64,000 bases of DNA from Marinicella sp. (GCA_965230295.1 OZ246001.1:1120001-1184000), one strand, 5' to 3'. Counted from the stretch's first letter, positions 10,100 through 42,554 are shown. Numbers and translations: made by a program. Notes: generated from the letters alone by a model not told the origin.

Positions 10100-10148
10100 A
10101 AGTGGGTATCGCTTCGTTTAAGTGGCGTTATTTTAATGGATTAAACGT

Positions 10149-10175
10149 AAAAAACCCATCAAAGTGATGGGTTTT
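10149..10175 (-). terminator. Intrinsic terminator after coxC
   Basis: AAAACCCATC-N5-GATGGGTTTT hairpin with T6 on the minus strand. Confidence 0.75.
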
Positions 10176-10201
10176 CAACGTCAGAATTATGTTTTATCGA
10201 T

Positions 10202-11074
10202 TCAGATGATGTAGACAAATATAAACAGTCCCAACCAAACCACATCAACAAAGTGCCAGTACCATGCCACGGCTTCAAAACCGAAGTGACTTTCTGGACG
10301 GAAGTGACCTCGAATCACCCGAATGGTGATCACCGCGATCATGATGGCACCTAATGTCACATGCATGCCGTGGAAACCGGTCAACATAAAGAAGGTGGAT
10401 CCATAAATACCTGAAGATAGTTTCAAGTTCAGGTGTTTATAAGCTTCAACATACTCTTCTGCTTGATAGAACAAAAAGACGGCGCCCAAGATCACTGTCG
10501 CAATCAACCAAATGATCGTTTGGCTGCGGTTATTGGCCCTTAAAGCATGGTGTGCAATGGTGATGGTGACCGAACTGGCCAATAACAACAAGGTGTTGAT
10601 CAAGGGTAAATGATAAGGGTCGATCAGCTCAAATCGGCCATTCAATTCTCCAGGACCATTGGTTGGCCAGACCCCTTCATAACCTGGATAGAGGACTTCG
10701 TTGGTCGATAAACCAGTACCTTCACCACCCAACCAGGGCACTGAAAAGTTACGTGCATAAAACAAGGCGCCAAAGAAGCAGGCAAAAAACATCACTTCTG
10801 AAAAAATGAACCAAATCATACCCATGCGAAATGAGGTATCAACCTGGGTGTTGTACAGTTTGTCTTCGCTTTCTTTGATGACTTCACCAAACCAACCAAA
10901 CATCATCCATAAAATGATGGCAATTCCCAGATACAAAACCCAAGGCGTTCCCGGATTCTCACTGTTCAATTGATTGATGGCACCCAATACGGTTACGGTT
11001 AAACCAATGGAACCAACAATTGGCCATTTGGCCAGATGTGGCACGTAATATTGATCTTTACTAACTTCTGACAT
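10202..11074 (-). CDS. coxC: Cytochrome c oxidase subunit III
   Basis: WFIFSEVMFF, TFFMLTGFHGMHV, AWYWHFVDVVW. Confidence 0.96.
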   Translation of the reverse strand: MSEVSKDQYYVPHLAKWPIVGSIGLTVTVLGAINQLNSENPGTPWVLYLGIAIILWMMFGWFGEVIKESEDKLYNTQVDTSFRMGMIWFIFSEVMFFACFFGALFYARNFSVPWLGGEGTGLSTNEVLYPGYEGVWPTNGPGELNGRFELIDPYHLPLINTLLLLASSVTITIAHHALRANNRSQTIIWLIATVILGAVFLFYQAEEYVEAYKHLNLKLSSGIYGSTFFMLTGFHGMHVTLGAIMIAVITIRVIRGHFRPESHFGFEAVAWYWHFVDVVWLGLFIFVYII

Positions 11075-11092
11075 GCTAATTGCCCCTAATAT

Positions 11093-11662
11093 TTAAATTT
11101 TTTCATGTATGGCATCACCAGCAGCCTGTTGTTCTGCGGTCATGCGATTTTTGTTAAAAAAGGTGTATGACAAAGTCAACACCTCAATGTCTTTCGGTAT
11201 GTCCGAACTGACGATAAAAGTCACCGGCATATTTTTCTTTTCACCAGGTGTCAGCAACTGCTCGGTAAAACAAAAGCACTCTGTTTTACTGAAATAAAGA
11301 GATGCTTCGTTGGGTGCCACGCTGGGAACCGCTTGACCAGTGACATCGATTTCAGCAATGTTTTGTGCAATGTACTCTGTTGAGTACAGTTTACCAGGCA
11401 CCACTTCCATGGAAAATTGTTGTGGTTTGAATGACCAGGGCAAATCACTGTTGACCGTGCCATCAAACTGTACCGTCACGGTGTGGTTGGCAGTTTGGTT
11501 GGTCACGTCTTCAGTGGCAATGACCCCTGTTTTACCATTCAAACCAGTGACTTCACAAATCACGTCATACAAAGGCACCAATGCAAAACCGAAGCCAACC
11601 ATAATGGCGGACACCAACAGGCCTTTCCTCAATACCCGACTGTTCGCTTGATCACGTTGCAT
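11093..11662 (-). CDS. ctaG: Cytochrome c oxidase assembly protein CtaG/Cox11
   Basis: ALVPLYDVICEVTGLNG, KTECFCF, TLSYTFF. Confidence 0.95.
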   Translation of the reverse strand: MQRDQANSRVLRKGLLVSAIMVGFGFALVPLYDVICEVTGLNGKTGVIATEDVTNQTANHTVTVQFDGTVNSDLPWSFKPQQFSMEVVPGKLYSTEYIAQNIAEIDVTGQAVPSVAPNEASLYFSKTECFCFTEQLLTPGEKKNMPVTFIVSSDIPKDIEVLTLSYTFFNKNRMTAEQQAAGDAIHEKI

Positions 11663-11780
11663 GAGTCACCACTATATAGACTGCCCAAGAAAAGAACCCC
11701 AAAGCCACCACTGCCAATATCAAGGCTGTCTTTCTGGCGGCTTTGCGCTGTGCTTGGATTTGTTTATCGTCCTGGTTCAT
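11652..11780 (-). CDS. 42-aa single-TM small protein in the cox operon (absent from the ORF track)
   Basis: MNQDDKQIQAQRKAARKTALILAVVALGFFSWAVYIVVTHAT*; starts 7 bp after the coxA stop and overlaps the ctaG start. Confidence 0.75.
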   Translation of the reverse strand: MNQDDKQIQAQRKAARKTALILAVVALGFFSWAVYIVVTHAT

Positions 11781-11787
11781 CGTTCAA

Positions 11788-13407
11788 TCAGTGAACTTTA
11801 CCATGAGCCATCTTATCCAGGTCTACTGGACCAAATTCTTCGAACGTGTGGTATGGCGCTGGAGAAGGAACAGTCCACTCCAAACCTTTGGCACCTTCCC
11901 AAACTTCATCAGTCGCTTTTTCACCACCTTTAACGGTTTTCCACACAATGTAGATGAAGAAGACTTGTGCCAGACCAAAGGCAAACCCGCCGATCGATGA
12001 CCACATGTTGAATTCTGCAAATTGGGTGGAGTAATCCGGAATACGACGTGGCATACCTGCCAAGCCCAAGAAATGTTGTGGGAAGAACAAGACATTGACT
12101 GAAATGGTTGACCACCAGAAGTGAATTTTACCCAACCGTTCGTTGTACATGTGGCCAGACCATTTTGGCAACCAGTAGTAAGCGCCGGCAATGATGGCAT
12201 AAACGGCGCCTGTTACCAGTACATAATGGAAATGCGCCACAATGAAGTAAGTGTCATGGTATTGCAAATCAACTGGAGCCAAGGCCATCATCACACCAGA
12301 AAAACCACCAATGGTGAACAGAATCACAAACGCCAGTGAGAACAACATGGGCGTCTCAAAGGTCATTGAACCTTTCCACATGGTCGCCACCCAGTTGAAG
12401 ATTTTCACCCCTGTTGGCACCGCAATCATCATGGTGGCATACATGAAGTACAACTCACCACCCAACGGCATCCCGACTGAGAACATGTGATGCGCCCATA
12501 CGATGAATGACAAGAAGGCAATGGCAGCTGTGGCATAAACCATCGATACATAACCAAACAATGGCTTACGAGCGAAGGTAGGTATGATTTCAGATACCAC
12601 ACCAAAGGCCGGCAGAATCATGATGTAAACTTCAGGGTGTCCAAAGAACCAGAATATGTGTTGGAACAACACCGGATCACCCCCACCAGCGGCATTAAAG
12701 AAGCTGGTGTCAAAATAACGGTCAGTCAGTAACATGGTCACCGCTCCGGCCAACACAGGCATCACAGCAATCAACAGGAATGCAGTGATCAACCACGTCC
12801 AGACAAACAATGGCATGTTCAAGTAACCCACATTAGGGGCACGCATGTTCATGATGGTGGCAATCACATTGATCGCACCCATGATGGACGAGATACCCAT
12901 CAGATGCACTGCAAATACCAAGTATGCCACGTTGTGACCACCTTGAAGCACCAAAGGAGGATACATGGTCCAACCACCTGCTGGCGCACCACCTTCCATA
13001 AATAAGGTTGATGACAACAAAGTAAAAGCAAAAGGCAGGATCCAAAATGACCAGTTATTCATTCTTGGCAAGGCCATATCAGGCGCACCAATCATCATTG
13101 GAATCATCCAGTTGGCCAAACCTACAAAAGCTGGCATGACCGCACCAAATACCATGATCAAGGCATGCATGGTGGTCATTTGGTTAAAGAAGTCAGGTTC
13201 TACAAATTGCAGACCTGGTTGAAACAATTCCAATCGAATGATCATCGCCATGGCGCCACCCAAAATAAACATGGCAAAAGCAAAGATCAAATACAAAGTA
13301 CCAATGTCTTTGTGGTTGGTGGTCATCAACCATCTTTTCACAAAGCCTTTGGGTTTGTGGTCATGGTGGTCGTGAGATACTTCATCATGTGTGATATCGT
13401 GACTCAT
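11788..13407 (-). CDS. coxA: Cytochrome c oxidase subunit I (A1 type)
   Basis: TTNHKDIGTLY, WFFGHPEVY, VWAHHM, HFHY, GMPRR. Confidence 0.98.
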   Translation of the reverse strand: MSHDITHDEVSHDHHDHKPKGFVKRWLMTTNHKDIGTLYLIFAFAMFILGGAMAMIIRLELFQPGLQFVEPDFFNQMTTMHALIMVFGAVMPAFVGLANWMIPMMIGAPDMALPRMNNWSFWILPFAFTLLSSTLFMEGGAPAGGWTMYPPLVLQGGHNVAYLVFAVHLMGISSIMGAINVIATIMNMRAPNVGYLNMPLFVWTWLITAFLLIAVMPVLAGAVTMLLTDRYFDTSFFNAAGGGDPVLFQHIFWFFGHPEVYIMILPAFGVVSEIIPTFARKPLFGYVSMVYATAAIAFLSFIVWAHHMFSVGMPLGGELYFMYATMMIAVPTGVKIFNWVATMWKGSMTFETPMLFSLAFVILFTIGGFSGVMMALAPVDLQYHDTYFIVAHFHYVLVTGAVYAIIAGAYYWLPKWSGHMYNERLGKIHFWWSTISVNVLFFPQHFLGLAGMPRRIPDYSTQFAEFNMWSSIGGFAFGLAQVFFIYIVWKTVKGGEKATDEVWEGAKGLEWTVPSPAPYHTFEEFGPVDLDKMAHGKVH

Positions 13408-13422
13408 AATAAATCCCCTAAA

Positions 13423-14577
13423 TTATTGTTTCATGCTTTTGACAGTGGCTGGCTGAACAACGTCGCCGACTGAATTGCCAAAAGAATTTCGTGTGTAAGT
13501 AATGGCTGCAGCGATGTCAGTTTCTGACAACAAACCACCAAAAGCTTGCATGGCAGTTCCTGGCTTACCATTCAAAACCAATTCGATTTGATCAGCAGCA
13601 GGTCCGACCACCAGTTCACTGCCAGCCAGAGCCGGAAAGGCCGGAGCCATGCCAGATCCATTGGCTTGGTGACAAACTGCACATTGGCTGTTGTAAACTT
13701 CTTCACCTTTGGCCATCAATTGGTCCATGGTCCATTCAGTTTCAACCAGTTCAGCCTCTTCGGCTTGCTCGCCTTTTTGATCAGCAACCCATTGGGCATA
13801 ATCTTCTTTGCTCAAGACTTCAACCACAATCGGCATGAACCCATGGTCTTTGCCGCATAACTCAGCACATTGACCGCGGTAGGTACCAGGGGTTTTCACA
13901 TTGGTCCAGGCTTCGTTAACATACCCAGGTATGGCATCTCTTTTCCAACCAAAGTCAGGAACCCACCAGGCATGAATCACATCATCAGCCGTTAACAAAA
14001 AGCGGATGTTGGTGTCTACTGGAATCACCAATGGGTTGTCTACATCCAACAGGTAGTTTTCGACGGTGTTGGGATCAACGCCTGAGCCTTTTTGTCTGGC
14101 CAGGTTACTGTCTTTAGACAGGGTACTTAAAAAGCTGATGCCTTCTTCCATGTAGTCGTATTTCCACTTCCACTGGTAGCCGGTGATTTTAACCGTCATG
14201 TCAAACTGCATGCGCTTGCCATCATCATCGGTTGGGTTTTCCATTTGGATCAAGGCGCGGGTTGCTGGAATCGCAATCACCACCAAAATCAAAATCGGAA
14301 TGATGGTCCAGATCACTTCAGCTGTGGTGCTGTGGCTGAATTGTTCTGGCTTGTACCCTTTGGATTTTCGGTGGGTAAAGATTGAAACAATCATTGCCCC
14401 GAACACCACGATACCAATCACGATACAAATCCACAGTGTGAATGTATGCATCCCATAGGCGGTTTCACTGAATTCCGTGACGCCTTTTCTTAAATTCAAT
14501 CCATATTCTGCTGCTGACATGGACGAAACCAACAATCCAGCAATCAGCATCATGAATTTCATTTGTGCTTTTTTCAT
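13423..14577 (-). CDS. coxB: Cytochrome c oxidase subunit II with fused C-terminal cytochrome c
   Basis: CuA motifs DVIHAW and CAELCGKDHGFM; heme motif CAVCH; start placed at MKKAQ, which begins a signal-peptide-like segment. Confidence 0.95.
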   Translation of the reverse strand: MKKAQMKFMMLIAGLLVSSMSAAEYGLNLRKGVTEFSETAYGMHTFTLWICIVIGIVVFGAMIVSIFTHRKSKGYKPEQFSHSTTAEVIWTIIPILILVVIAIPATRALIQMENPTDDDGKRMQFDMTVKITGYQWKWKYDYMEEGISFLSTLSKDSNLARQKGSGVDPNTVENYLLDVDNPLVIPVDTNIRFLLTADDVIHAWWVPDFGWKRDAIPGYVNEAWTNVKTPGTYRGQCAELCGKDHGFMPIVVEVLSKEDYAQWVADQKGEQAEEAELVETEWTMDQLMAKGEEVYNSQCAVCHQANGSGMAPAFPALAGSELVVGPAADQIELVLNGKPGTAMQAFGGLLSETDIAAAITYTRNSFGNSVGDVVQPATVKSMKQ

Positions 14578-14740
14578 AAATTTTACCCTAATGAATTTTT
14601 GAAAACCAAGACCTTGAACGTGTGGCAATGATTATTGTTCGATGCATGCCACACATAACACCTCACAAAAGCTCGTCATTTCTATGACTCAGGCCAATCA
14701 TAAACCCATGTTTTCATTGAAAGTTTAAATGTTCAATGGA

Positions 14741-14757
14741 TGCGACTAAATGTCGCA
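14741..14757. promoter_or_regulatory. RegA/PrrA/RoxR-type palindrome upstream of the cox operon
   Basis: TGCGAC-TAAAT-GTCGCA perfect inverted repeat matching GCGnC..GnCGC. Confidence 0.55.
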
Positions 14758-15004
14758 CAGGTCAGACGCGGCAATTCTACCATGTGATATGCCAAATATC
14801 TGCAACTAGTGTTATTTTTTTGTTAGCAATGGACCCAATAATCTTGAATTAGGCAATGAATTGATGCCACCCGTCCTTTGCCCAATGGTTCAGTTCCGAA
14901 AAAAATAAAAAAAGTTGTGTTGTTTTACACAGCTCAATCATCTCAATAACGAAGCACCAGATATTTGACGGTGCTTTGTGAACATTTATATGAGGAAACA
15001 GACC

Positions 15005-16096
15005 ATGAAAAATGACTACTTACTAACGATTTTATTATTATTGATTTCGCTACCGATTTTCGCGGCAGAATTTTGTGTCACAAGCAGTGCTGGATTACAA
15101 GCGGCCTTGAATTCGGCTGCAAACAACAACCAACACGATTTGATTAAAATTGCAGAAGGCTCTTACACCACCCCAGGTAGTGAGTTCAGCTACACTGAAA
15201 GTGTCGGCTGGGATCTAGAAATTTCAGGTGGCTGGACTGAGTTTTTTGGCAATCCATGTGGTCAACAACTTTCTGGCAACCCATTCAATACAGTTTTGGA
15301 CGGTGACAGCAGCAACCGGATCATGAACATCCGTTCAGGCGGCTCTTCAGACATCACCATCAGCAGTTTGGCCTTCATTAACGGTGGGACTTCAAACCTA
15401 TCAAATGGCGGAGGTTTGCGATTCTGGCCAACCAACACGAACAATCACACCGGGAAAGTGGTTATTGAAAGATCTGCATTCATCAACAATACGGCTGAAG
15501 AAGCCAGTGCAATTTCCTTTCTCAGTGCAGGGTTACGGAATCACATACGCAACAATATATTCGTTGTAAACAGCACAACCAACGGTTCAAATACTGTCGT
15601 CATCAACCAGGACTTGTCAGCAGGCATTTACTTCACCAACAACACCATGGTTACCAATTCCGGAGATGCGGCCAACAACCGCGGTGGTTTAAGAATTTTC
15701 ACCACCTCGACATCAAATGCTTACGTGGGAAATAACGTGCTGTATGACAACGGCAGTGAGGATTTTAGAGTCACCGGCTCAGGACAGGTATACTTGCATT
15801 ATAACAATGTTGACCTGGTTTTCGGCGCAAGCTCAAGCAGCCTCATAGGTAATTTTTCTGCAGATCCCGAGTTCAATCCAGGCATATTAAACTACACACC
15901 TTCATATGGATCACCCTTGGTTAACCAAGGGTATGACCCTCCCAATATTGTTCCATTTCCAACACCTTTTAATCTGGCATGGTTTGAAGGCACAGTAGAT
16001 ATCTTTGGCAACCCCAGAAAACAAGATGGGAAAGTCGACATTGGAGCGGTTGAGACTGAGCCAGAACCGCCTATATTCGCAAATGGGTTTGAATAA
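15005..16096 (+). CDS. Secreted right-handed beta-helix-like protein with choice-of-anchor Q-like region and terminal IFANGFE tag
   Basis: RBS GAGG; signal peptide; Asn/Gly-rich repeats (GGGL, FINN, FTNNT..N); SPLVNQG..DIFGNPR..VDIGAVE; ends PPIFANGFE. Confidence 0.8.
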   Translation: MKNDYLLTILLLLISLPIFAAEFCVTSSAGLQAALNSAANNNQHDLIKIAEGSYTTPGSEFSYTESVGWDLEISGGWTEFFGNPCGQQLSGNPFNTVLDGDSSNRIMNIRSGGSSDITISSLAFINGGTSNLSNGGGLRFWPTNTNNHTGKVVIERSAFINNTAEEASAISFLSAGLRNHIRNNIFVVNSTTNGSNTVVINQDLSAGIYFTNNTMVTNSGDAANNRGGLRIFTTSTSNAYVGNNVLYDNGSEDFRVTGSGQVYLHYNNVDLVFGASSSSLIGNFSADPEFNPGILNYTPSYGSPLVNQGYDPPNIVPFPTPFNLAWFEGTVDIFGNPRKQDGKVDIGAVETEPEPPIFANGFE

Positions 16097-16102
16097 GTTC
16101 CC

Positions 16103-18685
16103 TTAATCTAGCAGGTGCTCTTGGCCATCAATGGCTTCGAGCATCTGTTGCAGCTTGGTTTCAGCTCTTGCGACTTCTGCATGATCCTGGCCCAAAAAAT
16201 CAATTTGCGCTTGAATCAATGCTTTTTGCGCCAAAACCGCAGATTGATCTTGACCAGCCTGAATCAGGCCATCAACCTGATGACCTTTAACCAAAATGAA
16301 ATACGGGTTGTTGCGTCCAAATTGGGCGACCAACCCAGCCAATGCGTTTTCCCAGACTGGCAACCCCAATGTCACTTGATTCAAACCCATGTGGCTGACT
16401 GCAATGTTGTCTTGCAACAACAAGGTGATTAAATGCCGCTCACCCAAACCCTCCAGTGCAACGGGAAGGCTTTCATCGCTGATTAAAAGGGATTCTTCGT
16501 ATCGACTGGTGTTGTTCAACAATTCACCCAGGTTATAGGCCAGTTTCAAGGTTTCAATGTGGTCATTGCCCATCTTTTCGTTTGCATTCTGGTAAGCTGT
16601 TCTCATCAGATCCTCACCTTCAATCATTCGCCCCAATGAAACGTAAGTATTGGCTAAATTGATATGGGTTTTTATCGCATCTTCACTTTCAGCACCCTCT
16701 AACTGAGTAACCAATTCAGCAGCACGCTCTTGATAAACCAAAGCCTCATCAAGCTTTCCTTGACGTTGTAAGTTCCCGCCTAAGTTAATCAACATAATCA
16801 AATAACCATGATTATCCTTGCCAAAATATTGCTCTGCCAGCTGCATAGACTGTACCAGGATTTCCTCAGCATCTGACCACCGTCCCAAGTGATTCAGCAC
16901 CAATGCCAAATTGTTATTCGCAGCCAGAACATTGGTGGGTTTGGGACTGTCTGTAGAACCCAGTGTGGCCAGAGCTGCACGCGCAACTTGTTCGGCTTCA
17001 TGAAACTTGGTTTGTTCGATATGGGTAACTGTCAATGCCATCAAGGCCAAGAATTTTGTGTTTTGATATTTCGTCTGCCGGGGTATTTGATCCAATAATT
17101 GATTCAACATCACTTCTGCTTTGTTGTATGCCCCTGATCGCCTTTCAGCATCAGCTGCATCCACTTTCGCATGCAAATTCAAATCCATGAATTGTGGCTC
17201 GGGGTCTGTGACATCAATGATTTGTTGTAATAATTTTTGACCGGCTTCATTGCGGCCTAATATCTTTTCGGTCCTTGCCACTTGTAATTTCATTCGCAAC
17301 ACATCTCTTAAATTGGCATCAGGATCATTTTCAAGAAGTGACAATCCTTTTTTGAATTGTTGGTTACTTTGGACCATTAATTTCAGGTTTTGGTATGACT
17401 TGCCGATGGCCTCACTGATGGCTGCCAGCGCCAGAGGCTGAGCAGCAAAACGGTCTGTAGAATTCTTGGCTGCCAAATCCAGCATATCAGCAACCCTGAC
17501 CTCTCGACCTTTGCCAACATCAAAGGTTGAACCCAAAATCTCTTGCAAGAATTCATTGACTGCTTCTGCTTTTTGCTGTTCCTGAACAGCTTTCTGCCGT
17601 TCAACATTGGCAAAATACAAACCCGAACTGGCCAACACCAGGCCGAACAACAATGAGCCTATGATGCCCATCACCATGCGCCGTTTTTTTCGCTGCACCG
17701 GCTCTTCCCTAACCAACTCAAGCGCCTTAATGATCACACTGGCTGTTGGCCTGGATTGTGGATGCGGGTTGATCATGGCCTGAATCAACCTCAGCATTGA
17801 TGTTGGCATATCTGGCCTGAAGCTTCGCAGTGATAAATAAGCTGAATTCTGGTGTGCCTGGGCAATGTCGAGTATATTTTCACCTTTGACCGGATATTGA
17901 CCACTGGCCATTTTAAACAGCAAACAACCCATGGCATAAATGTCACTGGCTGGACTTTTGGGCGAATCAGCAAACAATTCTGGTGCCATCAGCATGGGGG
18001 AACCTACTGAGTGATTACTGGGGTGATTGGAACCACTTTCCAAACCTGCACCAAAATCCATCAACACATATTGATCATTCTGATCCAACATCACATTGGC
18101 TGCTTTGACATCACCATGAACCAAACCTGCCTCGTGAACAGCCTTTAAAGCTTGGCTCAATGCGACACCTGCACTCAATAATTCTTCTAATTCGACACGG
18201 GTGTGACCCTCTAAAGTTTTTCCTAAAATCAAATCAGACCAGAAACCCACCTGCCCATCATGTACGCCAGCACCATGAATCGCCAGCACATGCCGGTTTC
18301 GAACTTGGGCGATGCGTTGGGCTTCTTCAATAAACAGTTTACTGTGAAAGCCAGCCAGTTGATCAGGTTTTAACAGTTTCAGTGCCACATCCCTGTTTAA
18401 CACCGGATCAAATGCCCGGTAGACATCTCCATACCCACCTTCGCCCAATTGTTCAATGACCTGGAGGTGACCCCATTCAAACAGGGCCACCACAGCATTT
18501 TGTGATGGCTGCTGATAAACCTGATGATGAGACGCAAACACTTGCTGGATGTCATGGATGCGCTTCAGCTGCTGCAAGATTTCATTTTCAGACTCGTTAT
18601 GAATGTCTTGTGTGTCCCAATCGACCGGCTCATCTGAAGCCATTTGATTCAGCAATGCCTGCCATTTGTCACCGGGGTCATTCAC
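16103..18685 (-). CDS. Membrane Ser/Thr (Hanks) kinase with C-terminal TPR array
   Basis: LGEGGYGDV, VALKLL, HGDVKAANV, DFG, MAPE, DIYAMG; one TM; TPR repeats such as NNLALVLNHLGRWSDAE. Confidence 0.92.
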   Translation of the reverse strand: MNDPGDKWQALLNQMASDEPVDWDTQDIHNESENEILQQLKRIHDIQQVFASHHQVYQQPSQNAVVALFEWGHLQVIEQLGEGGYGDVYRAFDPVLNRDVALKLLKPDQLAGFHSKLFIEEAQRIAQVRNRHVLAIHGAGVHDGQVGFWSDLILGKTLEGHTRVELEELLSAGVALSQALKAVHEAGLVHGDVKAANVMLDQNDQYVLMDFGAGLESGSNHPSNHSVGSPMLMAPELFADSPKSPASDIYAMGCLLFKMASGQYPVKGENILDIAQAHQNSAYLSLRSFRPDMPTSMLRLIQAMINPHPQSRPTASVIIKALELVREEPVQRKKRRMVMGIIGSLLFGLVLASSGLYFANVERQKAVQEQQKAEAVNEFLQEILGSTFDVGKGREVRVADMLDLAAKNSTDRFAAQPLALAAISEAIGKSYQNLKLMVQSNQQFKKGLSLLENDPDANLRDVLRMKLQVARTEKILGRNEAGQKLLQQIIDVTDPEPQFMDLNLHAKVDAADAERRSGAYNKAEVMLNQLLDQIPRQTKYQNTKFLALMALTVTHIEQTKFHEAEQVARAALATLGSTDSPKPTNVLAANNNLALVLNHLGRWSDAEEILVQSMQLAEQYFGKDNHGYLIMLINLGGNLQRQGKLDEALVYQERAAELVTQLEGAESEDAIKTHINLANTYVSLGRMIEGEDLMRTAYQNANEKMGNDHIETLKLAYNLGELLNNTSRYEESLLISDESLPVALEGLGERHLITLLLQDNIAVSHMGLNQVTLGLPVWENALAGLVAQFGRNNPYFILVKGHQVDGLIQAGQDQSAVLAQKALIQAQIDFLGQDHAEVARAETKLQQMLEAIDGQEHLLD

Positions 18686-19248
18686 TTCATGTTCTCTGCA
18701 AGTTTATACAAGGATCGTGCCACAATCATTCTGGCTGCATTGGCTGAAGAACATTCAATAGCAGCAGCAATTTCAGGGTATGAATAGCCCAATTCAACAC
18801 GCAATATCACCGCTTCCCTTGCTTGCTCGGAAATCTTCATCAACGCATTCTCATATTTTTCAATCACTTCAGACCCGATCGCTTTTTCTAAAGCAGAAGT
18901 GGCTGTGAGGTCATCACTTTCTTGATGTTGTTGTTTGAGCAAGTCCCTTTGGTTGCTGAATCGACGGATTTCCATGCGGATGTTATTCAGCAGAATTTTT
19001 CTTAAATAGGCCAGGAAAGCCCCTTCTCTGATCGAACTGAATGAGTCCAATTTGTTCATTGCTTTGATCAATGTATTTTGTACCATGTCATCGGTCTCAG
19101 CCAAATCACGGGCATAAGCCGGTAGTCGACCATGCGCCCAACGCCTCAGCATGGGCAAATAAGTGTTGCACAATTGTTCACGGGCCAAATCATCGCCTTT
19201 TTTAACTCTGGCCAACAAGGTAGCCGTTGATTCAAGTTTTGCCCGCAT
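18682..19248 (-). CDS. ECF sigma-70 factor, kinase-associated type
   Basis: STATLLARVKKGD..A; ETDDMVQ in region 2.2; region 4 ILRVELGYSYPEIA; 4-bp overlap with the kinase gene. Confidence 0.9.
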   Translation of the reverse strand: MRAKLESTATLLARVKKGDDLAREQLCNTYLPMLRRWAHGRLPAYARDLAETDDMVQNTLIKAMNKLDSFSSIREGAFLAYLRKILLNNIRMEIRRFSNQRDLLKQQHQESDDLTATSALEKAIGSEVIEKYENALMKISEQAREAVILRVELGYSYPEIAAAIECSSANAARMIVARSLYKLAENMK

Positions 19249-19338
19249 ATTCAGTTCATAGTAAATCTAATACCATTATATAGCATCCTTAATGCCTCTT
19301 ATGCTTTGCAATAATTTAATTAAAAACTTGCAAACTAA

Positions 19339-19470
19339 CTAAGCTCGCCAAGCCGGTTGGTGAGCTTAGCGAATCAGAGGCGAAGTGTGCGAAATAATAA
19401 GCCATGTTCGCAGCGGCCGCTTTCACTTTTTTCGGAGATAAAAGTGAATGAAGTCCCAAGAACATTCCTT
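19339..19470 (+). repeat. Structured dispersed intergenic element, copy A
   Basis: Several hairpins; its 3' 29 nt match the reverse complement of 51983-52011 at 28/29; its 5' block matches 52102-52123 at 16/22. Confidence 0.7.
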
Positions 19471-19512
19471 TATAATCCACGCAGCCTTAATAATTTTGTT
19501 GGAACCTCGATC

Positions 19513-22500
19513 ATGACACATCAAGCCTTACCATTCTCAGCGCACTACTTAATGGACGAAGAAGCATGGGTGAATCAACTGCTGGATTTTGCTAATCCAG
19601 GTGCCGGGAAACGACAAGAAATAAAACAATTGGCCACACAATTGGTGAAAAATGTTCGGGCACAAATTGATGACATGGATGGTGTCGATGCCTTCATGAA
19701 AGAATATGACTTGTCTTCTAAAGAAGGCATCCTGTTGATGTGCCTGGCAGAGGCCCTGTTACGCATTCCAGACAAATCCACAGCCGATAAATTAATCAAG
19801 GACAAAATCCTCGAAGCTGACTGGAAATCTCATCTAGGTAACAGTGAATCTCTGTTCGTCAATGCCTCCACTTGGGGCCTGATGCTAACCGGTAAGATCA
19901 TCGACATCGATGAAAGCAAAGGTGGCATGGCTCGAGCGCTTGACAAGTTCATCAATAAAACGGGGGAACCGGTGATCAGAAAAGGCATCCACCGTGCCAT
20001 GCAGGTGATGGGCAAACAATTCGTGATGGGCCGCAACATCAAAGAAGCCATCAAGCGTTCTGGCAAAAAAGGTTTCAGAGATTACCGTTATTCCTATGAC
20101 ATGTTGGGTGAAGCTGCGTTGACTCAAGACGATGCCGAACGTTATTTCATGGCATACATGAATTCGATTGCCAGTATTGCCGATGCCAATAAAAAACGCC
20201 ACATCAATGATGCTTCAAGTATCTCGATCAAACTATCTGCCTTACACCCAAGATACGAAGTGGGCAATGTCAACCGAGTGATCAAAGAATTGGCGCCTAA
20301 AGTATTGGAAATTGCCAACCATGCCAAACAACTCAATGTGGCTGTCACCATCGATGCTGAAGAAGCCGACCGCCTGGAAATATCACTGAAAATTTTCGAG
20401 GCAGTTTATCAGCACTTAGAGGACTACCAAGGATTTGGGTTGGTGGTTCAGGCCTATCAAAAAAGGGCTTTGAAGGTGTTGGAGTGGCTGGCTGATCAAT
20501 ATGACCAACACAAACGCCTGATCCCCATTCGCTTGGTAAAAGGCGCTTACTGGGACACCGAAATCAAGCGTGCACAAGAACAAGGGCTAGACAATTACCC
20601 TGTGTTTACCCGTAAAGTCAACACCGATGTGTCATACCTGGCTTGTGCCAGATTTCTGCTGAACAACCGTTCCAGGTTTTATCCGCAGTTTGCCACCCAC
20701 AATGCCAACACGGTAGCGGCCATTAAAGTATTGGCCGGTGAAACAGGTGGGTATGAATTTCAAAGGTTGCATGGCATGGGCCAGGCCTTACACGCCCAAA
20801 CCATCAGCCCAGAAGGATTGAACCGCCCATGTAGAATTTATGCACCAGTGGGTTCACACGAAGACCTGCTTCCTTACTTGGTCAGGCGCTTGCTGGAAAA
20901 TGGTGCCAACACCTCTTTTGTTAACCGCTTGACTGACCTGACCCTGGACATTGATGCCATCACCCAAGATCCCATTGAAAAGGTACGTAAACACACTGTA
21001 CACAAGCACCCCATGTTGCCTTTACCCAGAGACATTTATGGCACCAGTCGCATCAATTCGGCTGGTTTCAATTTAGGCGATTTAAAATGTATCGAAGATT
21101 TACAAAAACATGTCAAAGCAGAATCCGCTTTAAAACATCACGCAACCAGTCTGGTACCTGGTACCGAAGCCATTGGTGAGTTGGTTGAGGTACATTCACC
21201 GGCCAATCTGGATGTGATGATCGGTAGTTACAACCGAGCACAACCCGATGACATCGATTCGGCTGTGAAGAACGCCAGTGCTGCTTTCCCGCAATGGCGT
21301 GACACCGCTGTTGCAACCAAAGCTGAATGTCTATTGAAATTGGCTGATTTAATGGAAAGGAACAGCCATGCCTTGATTAACTTGTTACAAAATGAGGCCG
21401 GAAAAACCATGGGTGATTGTATCGCGGAATTGCGCGAAGCCGTGGATTTTTGCCGTTATTACGCAGACCAAGCCATCCAGTTGTGTGGACAAGGTGAAAA
21501 AATGCCTGGGCCCACCGGTGAAAGCAACTACTTGTATCACCAAGGCAAAGGCGTGTTTGTTTGTATCAGCCCATGGAACTTTCCGTTAGCCATCTATACC
21601 GGGCAGATTGTTGCCGCATTGGTGACAGGTAACTGTGTGATTGCGAAACCGGCTGAACAAACCAGTTTGATTGGCCATTTCACAGCCCAATTGATGCACC
21701 AGGCAGGCATTCCAGAACAAGTGTTCCAGCTGGTTTTGGGTTCAGGCAGTCAAATAGGCAACCAACTGTGCCAATACAATGAAATTGCTGGCGTGGTGTT
21801 CACAGGCTCAACCCAAACTGCTCAAATCATCAACCTCAATTTAGCCAACCGCAAAAACGCTTCCATTGCCACTTTGATTGCGGAAACCGGTGGGCAAAAT
21901 TGTATGATTGCCGACTCTTCATGCTTACCAGAGCAACTGGTTAAGGATGTGATCAATTCAGCCTTTCTCAGCGCCGGACAACGTTGTTCTGCATTACGTG
22001 TGTTGTACATACAAGCTGATGTGGCTGATAAAGTCATCCATATGTTGAAAGGGGCCATGGATGAATTGTCCATTGGCAATCCACAGCTGTTCTCCACCGA
22101 TTTGGGACCGGTGATTGATCAAAAAGCATTGAGCCTATTACAAAATCACAGAACCCGCATGCAACAAGAAGGCACGCCCCTCAAAACACTCGGTGTTCCT
22201 GAAATCAATGGGCATTATTTTGCACCTCAGGCCGTCGAAATCAGCGACATAGGTGTACTGGAGCAAGAAATCTTCGGTCCATTCTTGCATGTCATCAGAT
22301 ACCAAGCCAATGAACTGGACCAGGTCATTGACGCCATCAATGGTACCGGTTATGGACTGACCACAGGCATCCATTCACGCATCGATGACACCATTGAATA
22401 TGTGGTTTCAAGAATTCAGGCAGGTAACTGTTATATCAACCGCAACATGATTGGCGCCGTGGTAGGGGTTCAACCTTTCGGAGGCATGGGCTTATCTGGC

Positions 22501-26209: not shown

Positions 26210-26226
26210 CCAAAAACACTAATACT

Positions 26227-37201: not shown

Positions 37202-39949
37202 CTACTGTGTTTTCAACTGTGAAATTTCCTCGGCCAAGGCAATCTCTGACTGGTATCGGTTTTTCAATTCCGGTACATCCAAAATGTCCAACACATCAGC
37301 AGCTTGTTGAGTAGCCACCAATGAATTTCCTGTTGCGGCATTCAACTGTGCCCAGCGCAGTTTAGCCACTGCAGTACGCTTTGAGCCCAGCCCATAGGTA
37401 TCAACCATCAACTGATGTGCTTTTGCAATGATTGACTCAGCTTCATCATATTCACCCACTTCGATCAACAAAGGTACATACATGATTTGGAATCGAGCAA
37501 ACATAGGATGGTTTACACCCATTTCATGCTTTATACCATCCAGGGCCATTTCAAAGAACCTTTTGGATGCTTCATATTTTTTCAATGCCAACAATGATCG
37601 GGCCATTCCCACATCTGTAGATGCTTCATAAAACGGAATTCTTGGCTCCAAAGCAGGCCATAAACTTTGCGCCTTTTTAAAGTTCTCGATGGCTTTTTCA
37701 TGTTCGTTCAAAGCACGGTAAGACATGCCCATGTTCAAATAAGCTGCTGGCATTTGATGCCCTTTGATTTCTGTACCATATAGGTTGTCAATGATTTGTT
37801 GGTTGATCCTGATCCCTTCTCTCATGTCTCCCAATGAAGCCACTGATACAGCCAAACGACCTAAGTTGTCGATAGTCTCAGGATGGTTCTTACCAAATTT
37901 TTCACTGAAATAAGCAACCAACTCCCGATCAATTTCAATCGCTTTCAGTGCTTCCCCACTGTTGAAGAATGCATCGGATTCTATCCCTAAAATTTGAGGG
38001 TATAACAGGGGTTCATCAGTCACTTGTAGGGCATGTGATTTCGCCACAGCTATGTCATCCAATGCTTGCTTGAAATCAGGTTCAACCAAGGCCAGTTTGC
38101 CTTTCAAAGCATAGAGTGACGCCAGCAACGAATGGGCAGAAAACAACTTGGCTATGTCAGGTTCATATGAGCTTAAAGTGAGCATGATTTGTGCAGCCTC
38201 TGCTGTTTGATTCAAACGAATTAAGCTGTTCATAAGAGACATGGCTGCCCTCGCTGATTGTTCGTTAACATCATCTGTCAATGGTGCCAATTCCATCGCC
38301 TGCCTGAAATGATGAACAGCCCCTTCCAAATTATCCTGTGCTTCCATGTTATTACCCGCATGGATGTGAGCAGCTGCTAATCTATGTGTCTCTTTGGGTT
38401 GTTGATTCAATAATTTTATTTGTTCATTGGTGAGTTGTTCGGCAGACTTCACTTGACCTAAACGATACTGGATTTGGCTTAACAGCCCCAATGTTTCGGT
38501 TTTTAATAACACATCACCCTTTTCTGCCAAAATCTTCTCAGCTGCCAACCCAGTTAATTCATTGACACTGATGGGTTGTTGCTGATTCTTAACCGGATCT
38601 GCCGCTGTGAAAATACTGAGTAAAAATTGATTCGACCAATTGGCTTTTTCGGCCTCTTGCTCAGCAATGGCCGCTTGGTTAAAAGCAAACACCGCAGAGG
38701 CAACTATGCCAAACACAGCTGCAGATGAAATGGTGATTGGTATTTTATTTTTTTGCCATGTTTTACTGAATCTGTACCAAAAATGATTGGCGTGATTGGG
38801 AACCGCCGAACCTGCTAAGAACAGCTGTAAATCATTATTCAATTCAGTGGTATTTTTATACCGGGCACTGACATCCACTTGTAAACCTTTATCGATGATG
38901 GTGCCCAACTCTTTTGACAAAGCCCTGTCTATAACTTTCGGATCCAGGCCATTCATCAGAGCTATGCCATGACCACTTTTGCATTGTGCTTTGAAACGCT
39001 GATAGACTTTTTCAATTGGATTGTTCAGTTGTTGGTGATAATCAACCAAAGTGGTTATTGATTCACTTTTCCTGGGCACAGATCCTGTACACAGCTCATA
39101 CAAAACAGCACACAATCCAAATACATCACTGGCTGTGCTGAGCAAATCACCTTTGGTTTGCTCCGGAGATGAATAGCCAGGAGTGAACTGCGGTAAATAA
39201 ATGTCAGCAGAACTGACATGTAAGGGGCGGGCTACACCAAAATCCACCAATTTAATCTGTCCCGCTTCATTGACCAAGATATTGGCAGGTTTGATGTCTC
39301 CATGAATAACCAAATTCTGGTGGGCATACCCAACTGCATTGATGGTTTGTTGCACAAGTTTGATGCGTTCATGCAATGACAATTTATGTTTTTCAGCATA
39401 GGTACAAATTGGGCTTCCAGCCACCAACTCCATAACAAAGTATGAAATGTCATCATCATTGGTTCCACCATCAATCAAACGAGCAATGTTGGGGTGCTCG
39501 AATTGAGCCAAAGTTCGCATTTCTTCTGTGAACTTTTGTTTGCTGAGTTCTGAAAACTGGCCAGACTTGATGATCTTTAACGCCACTTCCTTTTCATATT
39601 CACCATCAGCCCTGCGCGCGATAAACACTTGCCCCATGCCGCCACTTGCCAAGGGTTTGGTCACTTTCCATGCCCCGAATTTTCGACCAACTATGTCACT
39701 CGGATTGCTGTGATTCAGCACCTGTTCTCCCAACAGTGACTCCACCAATGGATCGATCGAAGTATTCAAAATGTTGGTGCCAGATTCGTTTGCCAACATT
39801 TTTTGTAAGACCAACCGAGCTTCATCTGACAAATCTGCCTCTGCCATCTGCGTTTCTTGTGCCTCCTGCGGTAAATCACACAAAACATCAAATAGATTCA
39901 GAACCTGGGTCCACACCACTGGAGATAATTTTTTTAACAACTCATTCAT
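37202..39949 (-). CDS. Membrane Ser/Thr kinase with C-terminal TPR array
   Basis: W..V..LFD N-terminal helix; LASGGMGQV, VALKII, HPNIARLIDGG, HGDIKPANI, DFG, FTPGYSSPEQ; TM; TPRs. Confidence 0.92.
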   Translation of the reverse strand: MNELLKKLSPVVWTQVLNLFDVLCDLPQEAQETQMAEADLSDEARLVLQKMLANESGTNILNTSIDPLVESLLGEQVLNHSNPSDIVGRKFGAWKVTKPLASGGMGQVFIARRADGEYEKEVALKIIKSGQFSELSKQKFTEEMRTLAQFEHPNIARLIDGGTNDDDISYFVMELVAGSPICTYAEKHKLSLHERIKLVQQTINAVGYAHQNLVIHGDIKPANILVNEAGQIKLVDFGVARPLHVSSADIYLPQFTPGYSSPEQTKGDLLSTASDVFGLCAVLYELCTGSVPRKSESITTLVDYHQQLNNPIEKVYQRFKAQCKSGHGIALMNGLDPKVIDRALSKELGTIIDKGLQVDVSARYKNTTELNNDLQLFLAGSAVPNHANHFWYRFSKTWQKNKIPITISSAAVFGIVASAVFAFNQAAIAEQEAEKANWSNQFLLSIFTAADPVKNQQQPISVNELTGLAAEKILAEKGDVLLKTETLGLLSQIQYRLGQVKSAEQLTNEQIKLLNQQPKETHRLAAAHIHAGNNMEAQDNLEGAVHHFRQAMELAPLTDDVNEQSARAAMSLMNSLIRLNQTAEAAQIMLTLSSYEPDIAKLFSAHSLLASLYALKGKLALVEPDFKQALDDIAVAKSHALQVTDEPLLYPQILGIESDAFFNSGEALKAIEIDRELVAYFSEKFGKNHPETIDNLGRLAVSVASLGDMREGIRINQQIIDNLYGTEIKGHQMPAAYLNMGMSYRALNEHEKAIENFKKAQSLWPALEPRIPFYEASTDVGMARSLLALKKYEASKRFFEMALDGIKHEMGVNHPMFARFQIMYVPLLIEVGEYDEAESIIAKAHQLMVDTYGLGSKRTAVAKLRWAQLNAATGNSLVATQQAADVLDILDVPELKNRYQSEIALAEEISQLKTQ

Positions 39950-40526
39950 CGATCAACGCCGCCAATATGGCTTTGGCTTTTTGCCATGTTCGATCAAGTG
40001 TCCTTTTTGAGACCCCCAAAATTTCTGCGGTCTCACTGACTGTCATCCCCACAAAATACCGCAAATGCACCACTTCGACCAAATTAGGATCCACATCTTT
40101 CAGTTGTTCCAAAGCTTCGTTCAAGGCCACCACTTGAAAACAATCCTGGGCTGTTTTTGTGGATTGTTCCTCATAAGTTACCTGTTGGTTTGCTGCCCCC
40201 CTCTTGTCAGACATTTGGCGCCTGGCCATATCAACCAATATGTGCCGCATTGACAAAGCTGCCGTTGAATAAAAGTGCCTGCGGTTACTCCATTTTTTTT
40301 CGTCCGAATTGACACTGAGTTTAAGGTAAGCTTCGTGCACCAAAGATGTGGTATCCAGGTCTTTGTTATTGACATGCTTTCTGAGTTTGGCATGGGCAAT
40401 GATTTTGAGTTCCTGATACAACAAGGCCTGCAACTTTTTATCTTGTAATGCGGCTTGTAAAGATTCATTGTTCAATACATTGGTGACAGAACCCATCATC
40501 AATCTCAGGGGTTGGTGTTCAATCAT
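39942..40526 (-). CDS. ECF sigma factor, TIGR02999/ECF43-like (EcfK/EcfP type)
   Basis: YQELKIIAH, LDTTSLVHEAYLKL, W.NRRHFY..AA.SMRHILVD.AR..KRG, LRYFVG..E.AE.LGVS.RT..R.W; start uncertain (40526 or 40499). Confidence 0.9.
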   Translation of the reverse strand: MIEHQPLRLMMGSVTNVLNNESLQAALQDKKLQALLYQELKIIAHAKLRKHVNNKDLDTTSLVHEAYLKLSVNSDEKKWSNRRHFYSTAALSMRHILVDMARRQMSDKRGAANQQVTYEEQSTKTAQDCFQVVALNEALEQLKDVDPNLVEVVHLRYFVGMTVSETAEILGVSKRTLDRTWQKAKAILAALIDE

Positions 40527-40598
40527 ATTACCACAGCCCTTGAGTTGCTCACAATGCCGATTAATTTTTAATCCAACCATCATTCTGAGATCTGTTGA

Positions 40599-42554
40599 TT
40601 ACTCAAAATCATCACTAAAAATGAGGTCATCTGACTCGAAAACCGCTCTTATCGTGTGGCTTGATTGCACATTGGTTAAACATTCATCGTCCTGGTTCAC
40701 CAAGGGACAGTTCAACCAACCGATGAAATCACTGCCTGACAATGGCGTGGCAATTAAGGTCACGATGGTGCCATTGAAATACACTTCTGAGCAGTCAACT
40801 CCACATGAGATACCACCCGGAATACTGACCACTGCCCCTTCACCAGAGCCTTCTTTTTGTATGGTCAATAAAAACTCATCTTCACCAATGCTGTCATACA
40901 CTTCGTCAAAACCAGCATCATACAAACCACCAGGATCACCAGGTAAGCCTTGTGGATTGGTGTTCTCATTGACCGGTGCATCTTGATTTTCAATATCGAC
41001 TTCAGTTGTCCAACTGAATGAATCTTGCAAACACATATCCACGCCAGGAGAACTGGCCAGTTGTCTGGCATCTCCAGCAGCTGGGTTGATCAGTTGAGGC
41101 GTGCCCATGTCGTAAATCCCGGTAGGCCAAGCATGGCTGTTGTCAATCAGGTTACATTGGCCGGTGATGATGGCCGAACCGCCAGATCGGTCATCAAAAC
41201 CCGATGAATCAGTGAGCACTGAGTTTTGAATGTCTATGAACCCCGTCAGCAAGACCGATACGTAAGAACCGGTATTTGAATCTGGTATGTGGTTATCAGC
41301 CATGGTCATGTGACTGACTTCAAATTCATCGTTGTTGTTATCAGAGCGCAACATCGCATTGGCGCTGTTTCTGATCATTCCAACCCGATTCATTCTGACC
41401 CTGGATCCACCGTTACTGGTGATCATGCCAACAGCCACTGGGGTGGGAGCGATGTATTCGCTTTGTTCAATGACAGTTCTGTTTAATTGAACCATCGAAT
41501 CATTCACATTAACCACGGAACGTTCATAACGCGCACCCTGAACCTCTGAACAACGGAACAGCAAATTGCAATCGTTGGTTTGGTCCATGATTAATTGGGG
41601 CGTTGCCGTGCCGCCTCCATTGGCGTAAATGGCTGCACCCTGATCGGCTTGTGGCGCATTGATGTGGGTGTTTTGTAACAGTACAAAACCGCTACCATTG
41701 ATGTAAATGGCGCCACCATTTTCTGCCACGTTGCCATCAAAAATGACCCGGTTGGCTCGGCCATCTGCGAACACTTCGCCGCCATTATCAACATATAAAC
41801 CGGCGCCTTCTTCTGCATCCATACCTGACAAGGTGCCCCGGCCTTCTATCCTGACTCCATCTTTAATTTCTAAGTAACAACCACTTCTGATGTGCAAATT
41901 ACCTCCCTTTAATCCCTGATTGCGATGTAATCTTCCACGTAAAATCACGGTCGAATTATTCCCGGTGCAATAAATGCCTCCACCCAGGATATTGTTGGTG
42001 TTGCCATTGAACTGAATCAATGAATTGGATAAGACATCCAAGTAGCTGCCACCTGAAACCACTATGCCTGATTGGTTGCTGCTCACTAAAACATTGTCCA
42101 AGGTGACCACAGCACCACCATTCAATACCAAGGCACGGGTGGCACTGGTCAAGGACATTTGAATGTTCCTGAAAGTCACCACAGAACTGCTTTCGTTCAA
42201 AGTATTGACCTCAAAAATTTCATTGTTGGTGTCACCGATGGTTGTTCTGCCGCTGACCGCTCCAAAACAATCCGGATAACCACCGACCAAGGTCAATTCA
42301 CCAGCACCTGATGAAGACCAGTCCTGCAGCACGTAACTGCCATTGCTGTTGCCTGTATAATTGACGGTGTTGGTCAATCGAATCTCATCTTGCGAATCAC
42401 CGTTCAAGGCCGCCACAAGCAGTGCTTGGTCTAATGTGCCAAAGACATTGCCCCCGTTGCAGTTGACTGAATTGCCAACCCAATAAAGACCTGACCAAGC
42501 TGAAGTGCTGAAAATAACCGTCAATGATAAAATAAATATTTTAGTTGTTTTCAT
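40599..42554 (-). CDS. Secreted beta-helix/Pmp-like protein with choice-of-anchor Q-like region, InlB-B-like domain and terminal IFSDDFE tag
   Basis: RBS GAGGG; signal peptide; GGGI/GGAI repeats; SPGVD..DAGFDE; GSGEGAV.S.PGGI.CG.DC..VTL.A.P..GS.F.GW; ends DDLIFSDDFE. Confidence 0.8.
   Translation of the reverse strand: MKTTKIFILSLTVIFSTSAWSGLYWVGNSVNCNGGNVFGTLDQALLVAALNGDSQDEIRLTNTVNYTGNSNGSYVLQDWSSSGAGELTLVGGYPDCFGAVSGRTTIGDTNNEIFEVNTLNESSSVVTFRNIQMSLTSATRALVLNGGAVVTLDNVLVSSNQSGIVVSGGSYLDVLSNSLIQFNGNTNNILGGGIYCTGNNSTVILRGRLHRNQGLKGGNLHIRSGCYLEIKDGVRIEGRGTLSGMDAEEGAGLYVDNGGEVFADGRANRVIFDGNVAENGGAIYINGSGFVLLQNTHINAPQADQGAAIYANGGGTATPQLIMDQTNDCNLLFRCSEVQGARYERSVVNVNDSMVQLNRTVIEQSEYIAPTPVAVGMITSNGGSRVRMNRVGMIRNSANAMLRSDNNNDEFEVSHMTMADNHIPDSNTGSYVSVLLTGFIDIQNSVLTDSSGFDDRSGGSAIITGQCNLIDNSHAWPTGIYDMGTPQLINPAAGDARQLASSPGVDMCLQDSFSWTTEVDIENQDAPVNENTNPQGLPGDPGGLYDAGFDEVYDSIGEDEFLLTIQKEGSGEGAVVSIPGGISCGVDCSEVYFNGTIVTLIATPLSGSDFIGWLNCPLVNQDDECLTNVQSSHTIRAVFESDDLIFSDDFE

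Follow-up and report, generated by a model that had tools for sequence, protein, structure and literature searches.

Sigma factors of the extracytoplasmic function (ECF) type that are switched on by co-encoded Hanks-type Ser/Thr kinases are well established, with the pairs PknS/EcfK from Xanthomonas citri and PknT/EcfP from Vibrio parahaemolyticus as examples (PMC8999054, PMC13147305). Kinase-associated members are found in groups ECF43, 59–62, 217, 267 and 283 (PMC7826278). ECF43 members such as EcfP are described as devoid of the acidic DAED motif; the σ2.2 region of EcfP reads STTA, and phosphorylation of the second Thr supplies the charge for RNA polymerase binding (PMC8999054). According to the same report, other kinase-linked groups keep DAED-like residues and carry a Ser or Thr in or near the motif (PMC8999054). 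PknS comprises 833 residues, with an 83-residue N-terminal extension, a kinase domain, one transmembrane helix and periplasmic tetratricopeptide repeats (TPRs), and EcfK is additionally phosphorylated in its linker (PMC13147305). The authors of the PknS study state that the periplasmic signal sensed by its TPR domain is unknown (PMC13147305). Here, we describe a related locus, module 1, in a 64,000-nucleotide stretch of Marinicella sp. DNA (GCA_965230295.1 OZ246001.1:1120001–1184000, hereafter the window). The locus encodes an ECF sigma factor, a receptor kinase with a TPR domain and a secreted β-helix protein that ends in a short conserved tail (the tagged protein). The existence of this trio as a conserved unit is well supported. 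Whether the three genes also form one signalling unit that works in the manner outlined below is a question on which our judgement is evenly balanced.

The tagged protein of module 1 (363 residues) is encoded at 15005..16096 on the plus strand; its open reading frame (ORF) opens at 14978, and the public gene model (P0011) starts at 15005. The receptor kinase (860 residues) is encoded at 16103..18685 and the ECF sigma factor (188 residues) at 18682..19248, both on the minus strand. These genes were delimited by ORF listing and translation, supplemented by Pfam for the kinase and by Pfam and NCBIfam for the sigma factor. Sigma gene and kinase gene share 4 bp (18682–18685) and are translationally coupled. 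The kinase gene and the tagged gene converge, and a direct reading of the sequence leaves 6 bp (16097–16102) between their stop codons; no terminator-like hairpin was found between the two stops. An initial annotation of the window had given the same coordinates, overlap and stop spacing, and had placed the block between coxB and putA. The flanking genes indeed match CoxB (TIGR02866, 199 bits) and PutA (NF008869, 1532 bits).

The initial annotation had also stated that the block contains no anti-sigma gene. The only other ORFs of at least 80 residues in the block (16115–16432 and 18502–18747 (+)) both run antisense inside the kinase gene, and the three genes leave no room between them for a further ORF. 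Since no free coding space is left, we can reject a hidden anti-sigma gene. The module 1 sigma factor has a co-encoded Ser/Thr kinase and no anti-sigma gene, as is typical of kinase-associated ECF factors. The same holds for PknS/EcfK, where sigma factor and kinase are likewise adjacent, in what is described of that pair, and for EcfP, which is intrinsically regulated and encoded together with its Ser/Thr kinase. An Rfam search of positions 14000–20000 returned no match at E ≤0.1.

A Pfam scan of 48 further ORFs in the window found exactly one more ECF–kinase–TPR pair. This second trio, module 2, lies entirely on the minus strand. It begins with a tagged β-helix gene at 40599..42554 (651 residues from MKTTKIF, ending in DDLIFSDDFE-COOH), followed after 15 bp by an ECF sigma gene at 39942..40583 and by a receptor kinase–TPR gene at 37202..39949 (915 residues; Pkinase, 143.5 bits, plus TPR families) that overlaps the sigma gene by 8 bp. 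The module 2 sigma factor matches PF07638 with 138 bits and TIGR02999 with 176.4 bits (cutoff 126.15), families that we take to correspond to ECF43. Its σ2.2 region reads DTTS: the acidic DAED motif is replaced by a Ser/Thr motif, Thr residues stand in place of DAED as in PknS/EcfK, and the motif occupies the same place as STTA in EcfP. The two modules are far apart in sequence. Their sigma factors are 23% identical, their kinases are 25% identical over the kinase domain only, and their tagged proteins show no detectable BLASTP similarity (E 0.14); in the window ORF scan, the module 2 tagged protein had no Pfam match at E ≤1e-5. Nevertheless, both ECF–kinase pairs of the window directly adjoin a tail-bearing β-helix gene. 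By our own rough estimate, for about 55 genes and two pairs, two given genes would both directly adjoin a pair by chance with a probability of <1%.

We then turned to related genomes. One scan of species-representative genomes, made with a 17-sequence alignment of tagged proteins, yielded 14 loci (L001–L014) with relatives of the module 1 tagged gene, and the ORFs of these loci were searched with the kinase, TPR, sigma and tagged proteins of the window. The initial annotation had made its reading depend on above-chance, genome-wide co-location of tagged genes and kinase–ECF pairs. In the window and the loci, co-location recurs: besides the second trio of the window, an ECF and/or kinase–TPR gene adjoins the tagged gene in nine of the 14 loci, in three gene orders. 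Because the loci were picked by their tagged gene, this figure counts pairs beside tagged genes and not the reverse. The layout is convergent, as in the window, in L001, L003, L004 and L012, and also in L002, where only the TPR part is present and the contig ends inside the kinase gene. The tagged gene of L006 is divergent from the sigma gene. The Wenzhouxiangella-like loci L007, L008 and L010 are co-directional, with a sigma gene of the module 2 (ECF43-like) type followed by the kinase gene. In these three loci, a small (~370–400 residues) and a large (~830–900 residues) tail bearer stand in tandem (L007 9926–13559, L008 5231–8934, L010 8054–11688); the large proteins are NosD/Beta_helix-like, and the one in L007 is apparently split into two ORFs. 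In L005 and L011, the contig ends right beside the tagged gene.

This recurrence could in principle reflect nothing but inherited synteny of functionally unlinked genes. The window, L001 and L002 come from close Marinicella relatives and share one identical convergent layout, and the cox and putA-sized flanks are common to the window and L001. Set against this are the three gene orders, the two sigma groups, tagged proteins that BLASTP cannot relate to each other, and flanks that differ: cox/putA in the window, YCII/ADH in L006, dapD-glnD/AcrB in L007 and L010, and GGDEF/ArsC in L008 (the neighbour scan of the loci covered L006–L010, L013 and L014). We consider mere synteny very improbable. 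The tree of the 17 tagged proteins has long branches, with a median of 1.06 changes per column. Units with a sigma–kinase pair sit on several separate deep branches, on a backbone that is poorly resolved (seven of 14 inner branches open). We conclude that, in Marinicellaceae, Wenzhouxiangellaceae and related lineages, tagged β-helix genes accompany ECF–kinase pairs irrespective of how the genes are arranged. A self-contained cassette of ECF sigma factor, receptor kinase–TPR and tagged secreted β-helix protein, as initially annotated, is supported by its genes, its domains and its recurrence. We found no published description of this trio in the literature on kinase-linked ECF factors, choice-of-anchor proteins and β-helix proteins, a survey that did not extend to the neighbour lists of the individual ECF groups. 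A third component that persists with ECF–kinase pairs through deep divergence and reshuffling is a candidate target, a candidate ligand, or both.

The sigma factor of module 1 is a clear ECF member, with Sigma70_r2 at 40.6 bits, Sigma70_r4_2 at 33.8 bits and TIGR02937 at 67 (cutoff 42.9). It also matches PF07638 (35.6 bits, cutoff 21.1). Its best NCBIfam subfamily is TIGR02984, with 82 bits below the cutoff of 183.75, and TIGR02999 is absent among the 25 of 77 NCBIfam matches listed. The σ2.2 region reads ETDD and retains three acidic residues of the DAED motif; the ECF43 feature, loss of these residues in favour of a Ser/Thr motif, is absent here and in the family at large ([DE]-T-D-D). In both respects, the subfamily scores and the retained ETDD, the module 1 factor differs from EcfK. 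It also differs from EcfP in having an Asp at the position of the phosphorylated Thr, with the conserved Thr one position earlier. The initial annotation had named EcfP and EcfK as precedents; this needs correcting in that the module 1 factor, judged by its σ2.2 motif, is not of their (ECF43) type. Since ETDD is retained, the published switch, in which a phosphate stands in for a missing charge, is not simply transferable to module 1.

A HMMER search of 1.84 billion sequence representatives returned 5208 relatives of this sigma factor at E ≤0.001 and 197 at E ≤1e-30. For the query and its best 150 relatives, the σ2.2 consensus is [DE]-T-D-D-L-V-Q, with Thr52 present in 148 and Asp54 in 150 of the 151 aligned sequences. 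In an alignment of nine sigma factors, the module 1 Thr falls on the first Thr of the DTT motif, a position occupied by Thr in every sequence (9/9); eight of the nine also have a Ser in an RRxS context where the linker begins. Fusions of an ECF factor and a kinase in one polypeptide occur in five of seven long relatives scanned (P0248, P0258, P0274, P0280 and P0338), and one of two L012 ORFs scanned (11531–14263 (-)) is also such a fusion. The domain order is either sigma–kinase(–TPR) or kinase–NTPase–TPR–sigma, the latter with NB-ARC/AAA_22 domains. The fusions could be real, or could in some cases be merged gene calls or frameshift artefacts. Their occurrence in both domain orders supports a direct functional link between sigma factor and kinase. 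Judged by its sequence, the module 1 sigma factor appears to belong to a kinase-tied family with a conserved Thr in σ2.2, and not to typical ECF43. It is of the kind that keeps DAED-like residues together with a Ser or Thr in or near the motif. Module 1 points to a kinase-linked ECF group in which acidic σ2.2 residues coexist with a near-invariant Thr and to which the charge switch may not apply.

The kinase of module 1 consists of a ~70-residue N-terminal extension, a kinase domain (Pkinase, residues 75–320, 125.9 bits), one transmembrane helix and an all-helical TPR domain (TPR_12/TPR_10 repeats, ~470–860). This is the architecture of PknS; the lineage of the window, too, is Xanthomonadales-related (PMC7691419). 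The hydrophobic segment (~336–358) is directly preceded by RKKRR; given the positive-inside rule, the TPR part should face the periplasm. The Hanks catalytic motifs (G-loop, VAIK Lys, αC Glu, HxD...N, DFG and APE) are complete and invariant in 15 homologues, the residues being K103, E121, H190-G-D192, N197, DFG 210–212 and APE. In both kinases of the window (16103–18685 and 37202–39949), HGD takes the place of HRD in the catalytic loop. In other kinases, such a non-RD loop goes with activation that is independent of activation-loop phosphorylation.

An AlphaFold2 model of the full-length kinase shows residues 400–860 as ~22 helices with a predicted local confidence (pLDDT) of ~90. The nearest solved relatives of this periplasmic domain are the TPR domains of kinesin light chains (E 3.8e-18 for 5oj8_A), including 6FUZ and 6FV0. 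In these two structures, the TPR domain of kinesin light chain 1 (KLC1) binds C-terminal peptides of JIP1 (YTCPTEDIYLE) and TorsinA (PMC6214655). The grip is described as an aromatic pocket, Asn pairs on the peptide backbone and a clamp for the terminal carboxylate, and amidation of the peptide abolishes binding (PMC6214655). The TPR region of the module 1 kinase contains seven Asn residues that are invariant in 15 homologues (N634, N676, N679, N718, N724, N725 and N760), which we count among its similarities to KLC1. The kinesin light chain differs in that it serves as a motor adaptor in the eukaryotic cytosol, and the TPR_12 repeat type alone may account for the likeness. The domain also scored 123 bits against the "FxSxx-COOH system TPR protein" family (NF040586, cutoff 300), which we rejected as an assignment and took as general TPR_12 likeness.

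The third component starts with a typical signal peptide (MKNDYLLTILLLLISLPIFA/AEFCVT) and ends in ...ETEPEPPIFANGFE-stop, with the tail PPIFANGFE-COOH. Between these ends it has conserved Cys24 and Cys85, an Asn ladder and a Pro/Glu-rich linker ahead of the tail. Its AlphaFold2 model (pLDDT 93.3) is a right-handed β-helix of stacked short strands. The last dozen residues have no secondary structure and reach pLDDT values of 62–76, compared to blocks of at least 90 across most of the body. The model thus draws the tail as what may be a short linear motif, tethered after a Pro/Glu-rich linker. Foldseek against the PDB returned Rhombotarget A, pectate lyase Pel9A and PL6 alginate lyases (TM-scores 0.36–0.50), and the matches listed were overwhelmingly β-helix proteins. 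With TM-scores of at most 0.5, only the fold is informative; the best match, Rhombotarget A (0.40–0.47), was accordingly dismissed as an identity and taken as a shared fold, and the publications listed under that name indicated no function. ESM Atlas look-alikes are generic β-helix clusters only. The protein itself has no Pfam match, and PF13229 is precomputed on some of its homologues. It scores 20 bits against choice-of-anchor Q (NF041518, residues 305–360), below the cutoff of 25; one distant homologue (P0050) carries that name at NCBI.

The module 1 tagged protein has 52 relatives of ~360 residues each, from Marinicella, Wenzhouxiangella-like and other Xanthomonadales-like genomes and metagenomes. 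We searched the last 16 residues for the strict pattern [ILVM]F..[GRDSL]F[EDQN]. It is present in 41 of the 52, exactly terminal in 27; eight others have variant tails such as LIFWGIFE, and the remaining three, one of them a fragment, have no tail. Among 27 relatives of the module 2 tagged protein, 22 carry the strict tail, 19 of them at the very end. The consensus [IL]F-x-[ND]-[GRD]-F-[ED]-COOH is therefore common to two β-helix families that are unrelated by BLASTP. A scan of all stop-to-stop frames of the window found three tail bearers, two of which immediately neighbour the two sigma–kinase pairs. The third (3089–4372 (-), 427 residues) ends in IIFKSGFEGDLIFATGFEGPVIPPTCPSF, which holds the motif twice immediately ahead of the C-terminus, and has no match in Pfam or NCBIfam. 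Directly downstream of it, on the same strand, are genes for a sortase target protein of the marine proteobacterial type (812–2911 (-); TIGR03788, 616 bits) and for a class GN sortase (134–787 (-); TIGR03784, 193 bits). This position beside sortase genes means that the tail motif is not confined to sigma–kinase modules.

To what extent the tagged gene may depend on the sigma–kinase pair was judged from the DNA upstream. A promoter-like element at 14914..14943 (+) consists of GTTGTGTTGTTT (14914–14925), 10 nt and AATCATCT (14936–14943), behind an A-rich tract. The tagged-gene upstream regions of Marinicella-like loci repeat this arrangement: an A-rich tract, GTTGTGTTGTTT, ten variable bases, and AATCATCT or a close variant. 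In an alignment of seven upstream regions, the element forms an island of invariant columns. When the window and the loci were searched on both strands (289,817 bases), the exact 12-mer GTTGTGTTGTTT was found three times, each time just upstream of a tagged gene of the P0001 family (window 14914, L001 9910 and L013 9903). With up to one mismatch, seven of ten copies take this position. The 8-mer TTGTGTTR alone occurs no more often in the window than expected (8 copies against 12.2); only the longer element in combination with its position is specific. The sigma genes have different upstream regions. A TATAAT box, read by eye, lies at 19275..19280 (-), ~26 nt upstream of the sigma start codon. 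Also by eye, TATAAT is seen in the window, L001 and L004, TATATT in L003 and TAAAAT in L006, 26–50 nt before the start; the GTTGTGTTGTTT element is absent from all five of these upstream regions. The TATAAT box is possibly a housekeeping-type promoter of the sigma–kinase operon, and GTTGTGTTGTTT-N10-AATCATCT is a candidate target promoter of the ECF factor. The pattern fits constitutive expression of the sigma–kinase pair and sigma-dependent expression of the tagged gene, but proves neither.

Two further elements were seen in this region. In the stretch that separates coxB from the tagged gene, a ~30-nt element, ATCTGCAACT(A/T)GTGTTATTTTTTTGTTAGC, occupies 14798–14827 (+), ~90 nt ahead of the promoter-like element. 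Three Marinicella loci carry it in nearly the same form (window; L001 from ~9708; L002 from ~1952), and it may belong to the promoter region of the divergent coxB. An inverted repeat, AAGCACC...GGTGCTT, falls at 14952–14976 (+) within what is presumably the 5′ leader of the tagged gene; no obvious equivalent was seen in the other loci.

These observations can be combined into the following mechanism. Expression of the sigma–kinase operon would be constitutive. The kinase would be activated by a periplasmic event at its TPR domain and would in turn phosphorylate the sigma factor, with Thr52 or the conserved RRxS Ser at the linker start as candidate sites. The modified sigma factor would then read the GTTGTGTTGTTT-N10-AATCATCT element and drive the tagged gene. 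Control of the sigma factor by the kinase is likely, by analogy with the described pairs and in view of the fusions. That the tagged gene is an output of the pair is plausible, the promoter-like element being the basis of this step. The known regulons are different: the output of PknS/EcfK is a type VI secretion cluster, and EcfP controls polymyxin resistance in Vibrio, whereas the constant neighbour here is a tail-bearing β-helix protein.

A weaker part of this scheme concerns the signal. The signal peptide of the tagged protein and the positive-inside transmembrane helix of the kinase place the tagged protein and the TPR domain in one compartment. Their common location, the flexibility of the tail and the example of KLC led us to consider that the TPR groove might bind the tail of the exported protein. 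The protein would then be a product of the pathway and also report back to it, in a loop that provides feedback or monitors export. Specifically, the [IL]Fx[ND][GR]FE-COOH tail would be read by the KLC-like periplasmic TPR domain, and the cell would monitor export, folding or release of its β-helix cargo and adjust transcription through phosphorylation of the ECF factor. We regard this extension as speculative and, as it stands, unlikely. A complex prediction for kinase residues 361–860 (15-row alignment) with tagged-protein residues 21–363 (49-row alignment) gave 0.00 and 0.01 against a mark of 0.32, values that come without controls and count neither way.

Such a sensor would have parallels. 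DegS/RseA/sigma-E senses the C-termini of outer-membrane proteins, and FecA/FecR/FecI is a cell-surface signalling system. Both are ECF pathways in which a periplasmic sensor reads a terminal peptide or domain of an exported protein. They act through anti-sigma proteolysis; here, the anti-sigma protein is absent and a kinase would be the transducer. If true, tail reading by the TPR domain would parallel the sensing of outer-membrane-protein tails by DegS, but with a kinase at its base. PknS and other ECF-linked Hanks kinases would thereby gain a defined class of ligands for their TPR sensors, the first of its kind. In any case, tail-bearing β-helix partners make the input sensed by these TPR domains a tractable question.

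Several observations speak against the proposed mechanism. The promoter of the sigma operon was read by eye only; a two-hexamer sigma-70 scan lists no site there or at the promoter-like element, and the −35 box of the sigma operon is unconvincing. Many ECF promoters have an AAC-type −35 motif, which the promoter-like element lacks, and this element could be the site of another regulator. It also precedes the tagged gene of L013, where no pair lies within 10 kb, although this is compatible with control in trans. With its acidic ETDD, the sigma factor may bind core RNA polymerase without a phosphate, and the kinase may act elsewhere. The tagged genes of three of the 14 loci (L009, L013 and L014) have no sigma–kinase pair within 10 kb, and tail bearers away from pairs are encoded at 3089–4372 in the window, at 13616–14617 in L013 and at 3615–5597 in L014. 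The near-identical tail core of modules 1 and 2 argues against module-specific recognition. Tails on proteins away from pairs fit general sorting at least as well as a role as private ligand.

The last two points lead to a different explanation, in which the tail serves this clade as a general signal for sorting, secretion or anchoring. It would be read by machinery encoded at another site and be unconnected with the TPR domain, and the sigma–kinase pair would only regulate the production of one cargo in response to an unrelated envelope or environmental signal. The tail indeed occurs on unrelated proteins, some of them far from any pair, and its core is the same in both modules. In the module 1 protein, moreover, it follows directly on the weak choice-of-anchor Q match (residues 305–360; 20 bits, cutoff 25), a domain named for preceding C-terminal anchors. 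Since the tail core is shared by the modules and the tail also occurs on unpaired proteins, a general sorting signal stays a serious rival. On the other hand, the tail is only 7–8 residues long with a free acidic carboxylate end, and has neither a hydrophobic helix nor a known sorting-domain architecture. The neighbour scan found no candidate processing gene conserved beside the modules. A sorting function also leaves unexplained why sigma–kinase–TPR pairs keep such cargo as neighbours in three gene orders. On balance, we consider this explanation possible but tentative.

The proposed mechanism treats the tagged gene primarily as a target, but the tagged protein could be an input as well as an output. 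It might even be the input only: a periplasmic or surface β-helix receptor, for polysaccharide for example, that signals through its tail to the TPR domain in the style of FecA–FecR, with the regulon elsewhere. In the co-directional modules (module 2, L007, L008 and L010), the tagged gene or genes come first, separated by gaps of ~15–70 bp. A tagged gene that stands first, in the same direction as sigma and kinase genes, is a layout of signalling partners. Furthermore, β-helix folds commonly bind or cut polysaccharides. The signal for TPR domains of the PknS type is given as unknown (PMC13147305), which leaves room for such a ligand. In module 1, however, the tagged gene is a separate convergent unit with a promoter-like element of its own, which is more typical of a target gene. 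We find a role as sole input rather improbable, and retain the scheme in which the sigma–kinase pair would drive the tagged gene.

Three minor observations concern other genes. The window encodes at 55157–56392 (-) a secreted protein that consists almost wholly of seven FG-GAP_2 repeats (423 bits) and does not carry the tail motif. At 24686–27659 (+), a gene of the rhomboid family comes after GspA-like (AAA_22) and GspB-like genes; its best NCBIfam match is rhombosortase, with 45.9 bits far short of the cutoff of 84. The presence of a rhombosortase-like gene in the same window as a protein with structural similarity to Rhombotarget A is probably a coincidence. Finally, the tail bearer of L009 (Marinicella sp. 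W31, 9938–11083), which is without a pair, lies ~1.1 kb from the type II secretion genes gspN, gspM and gspL (12210–14644), with lgt between it and them.

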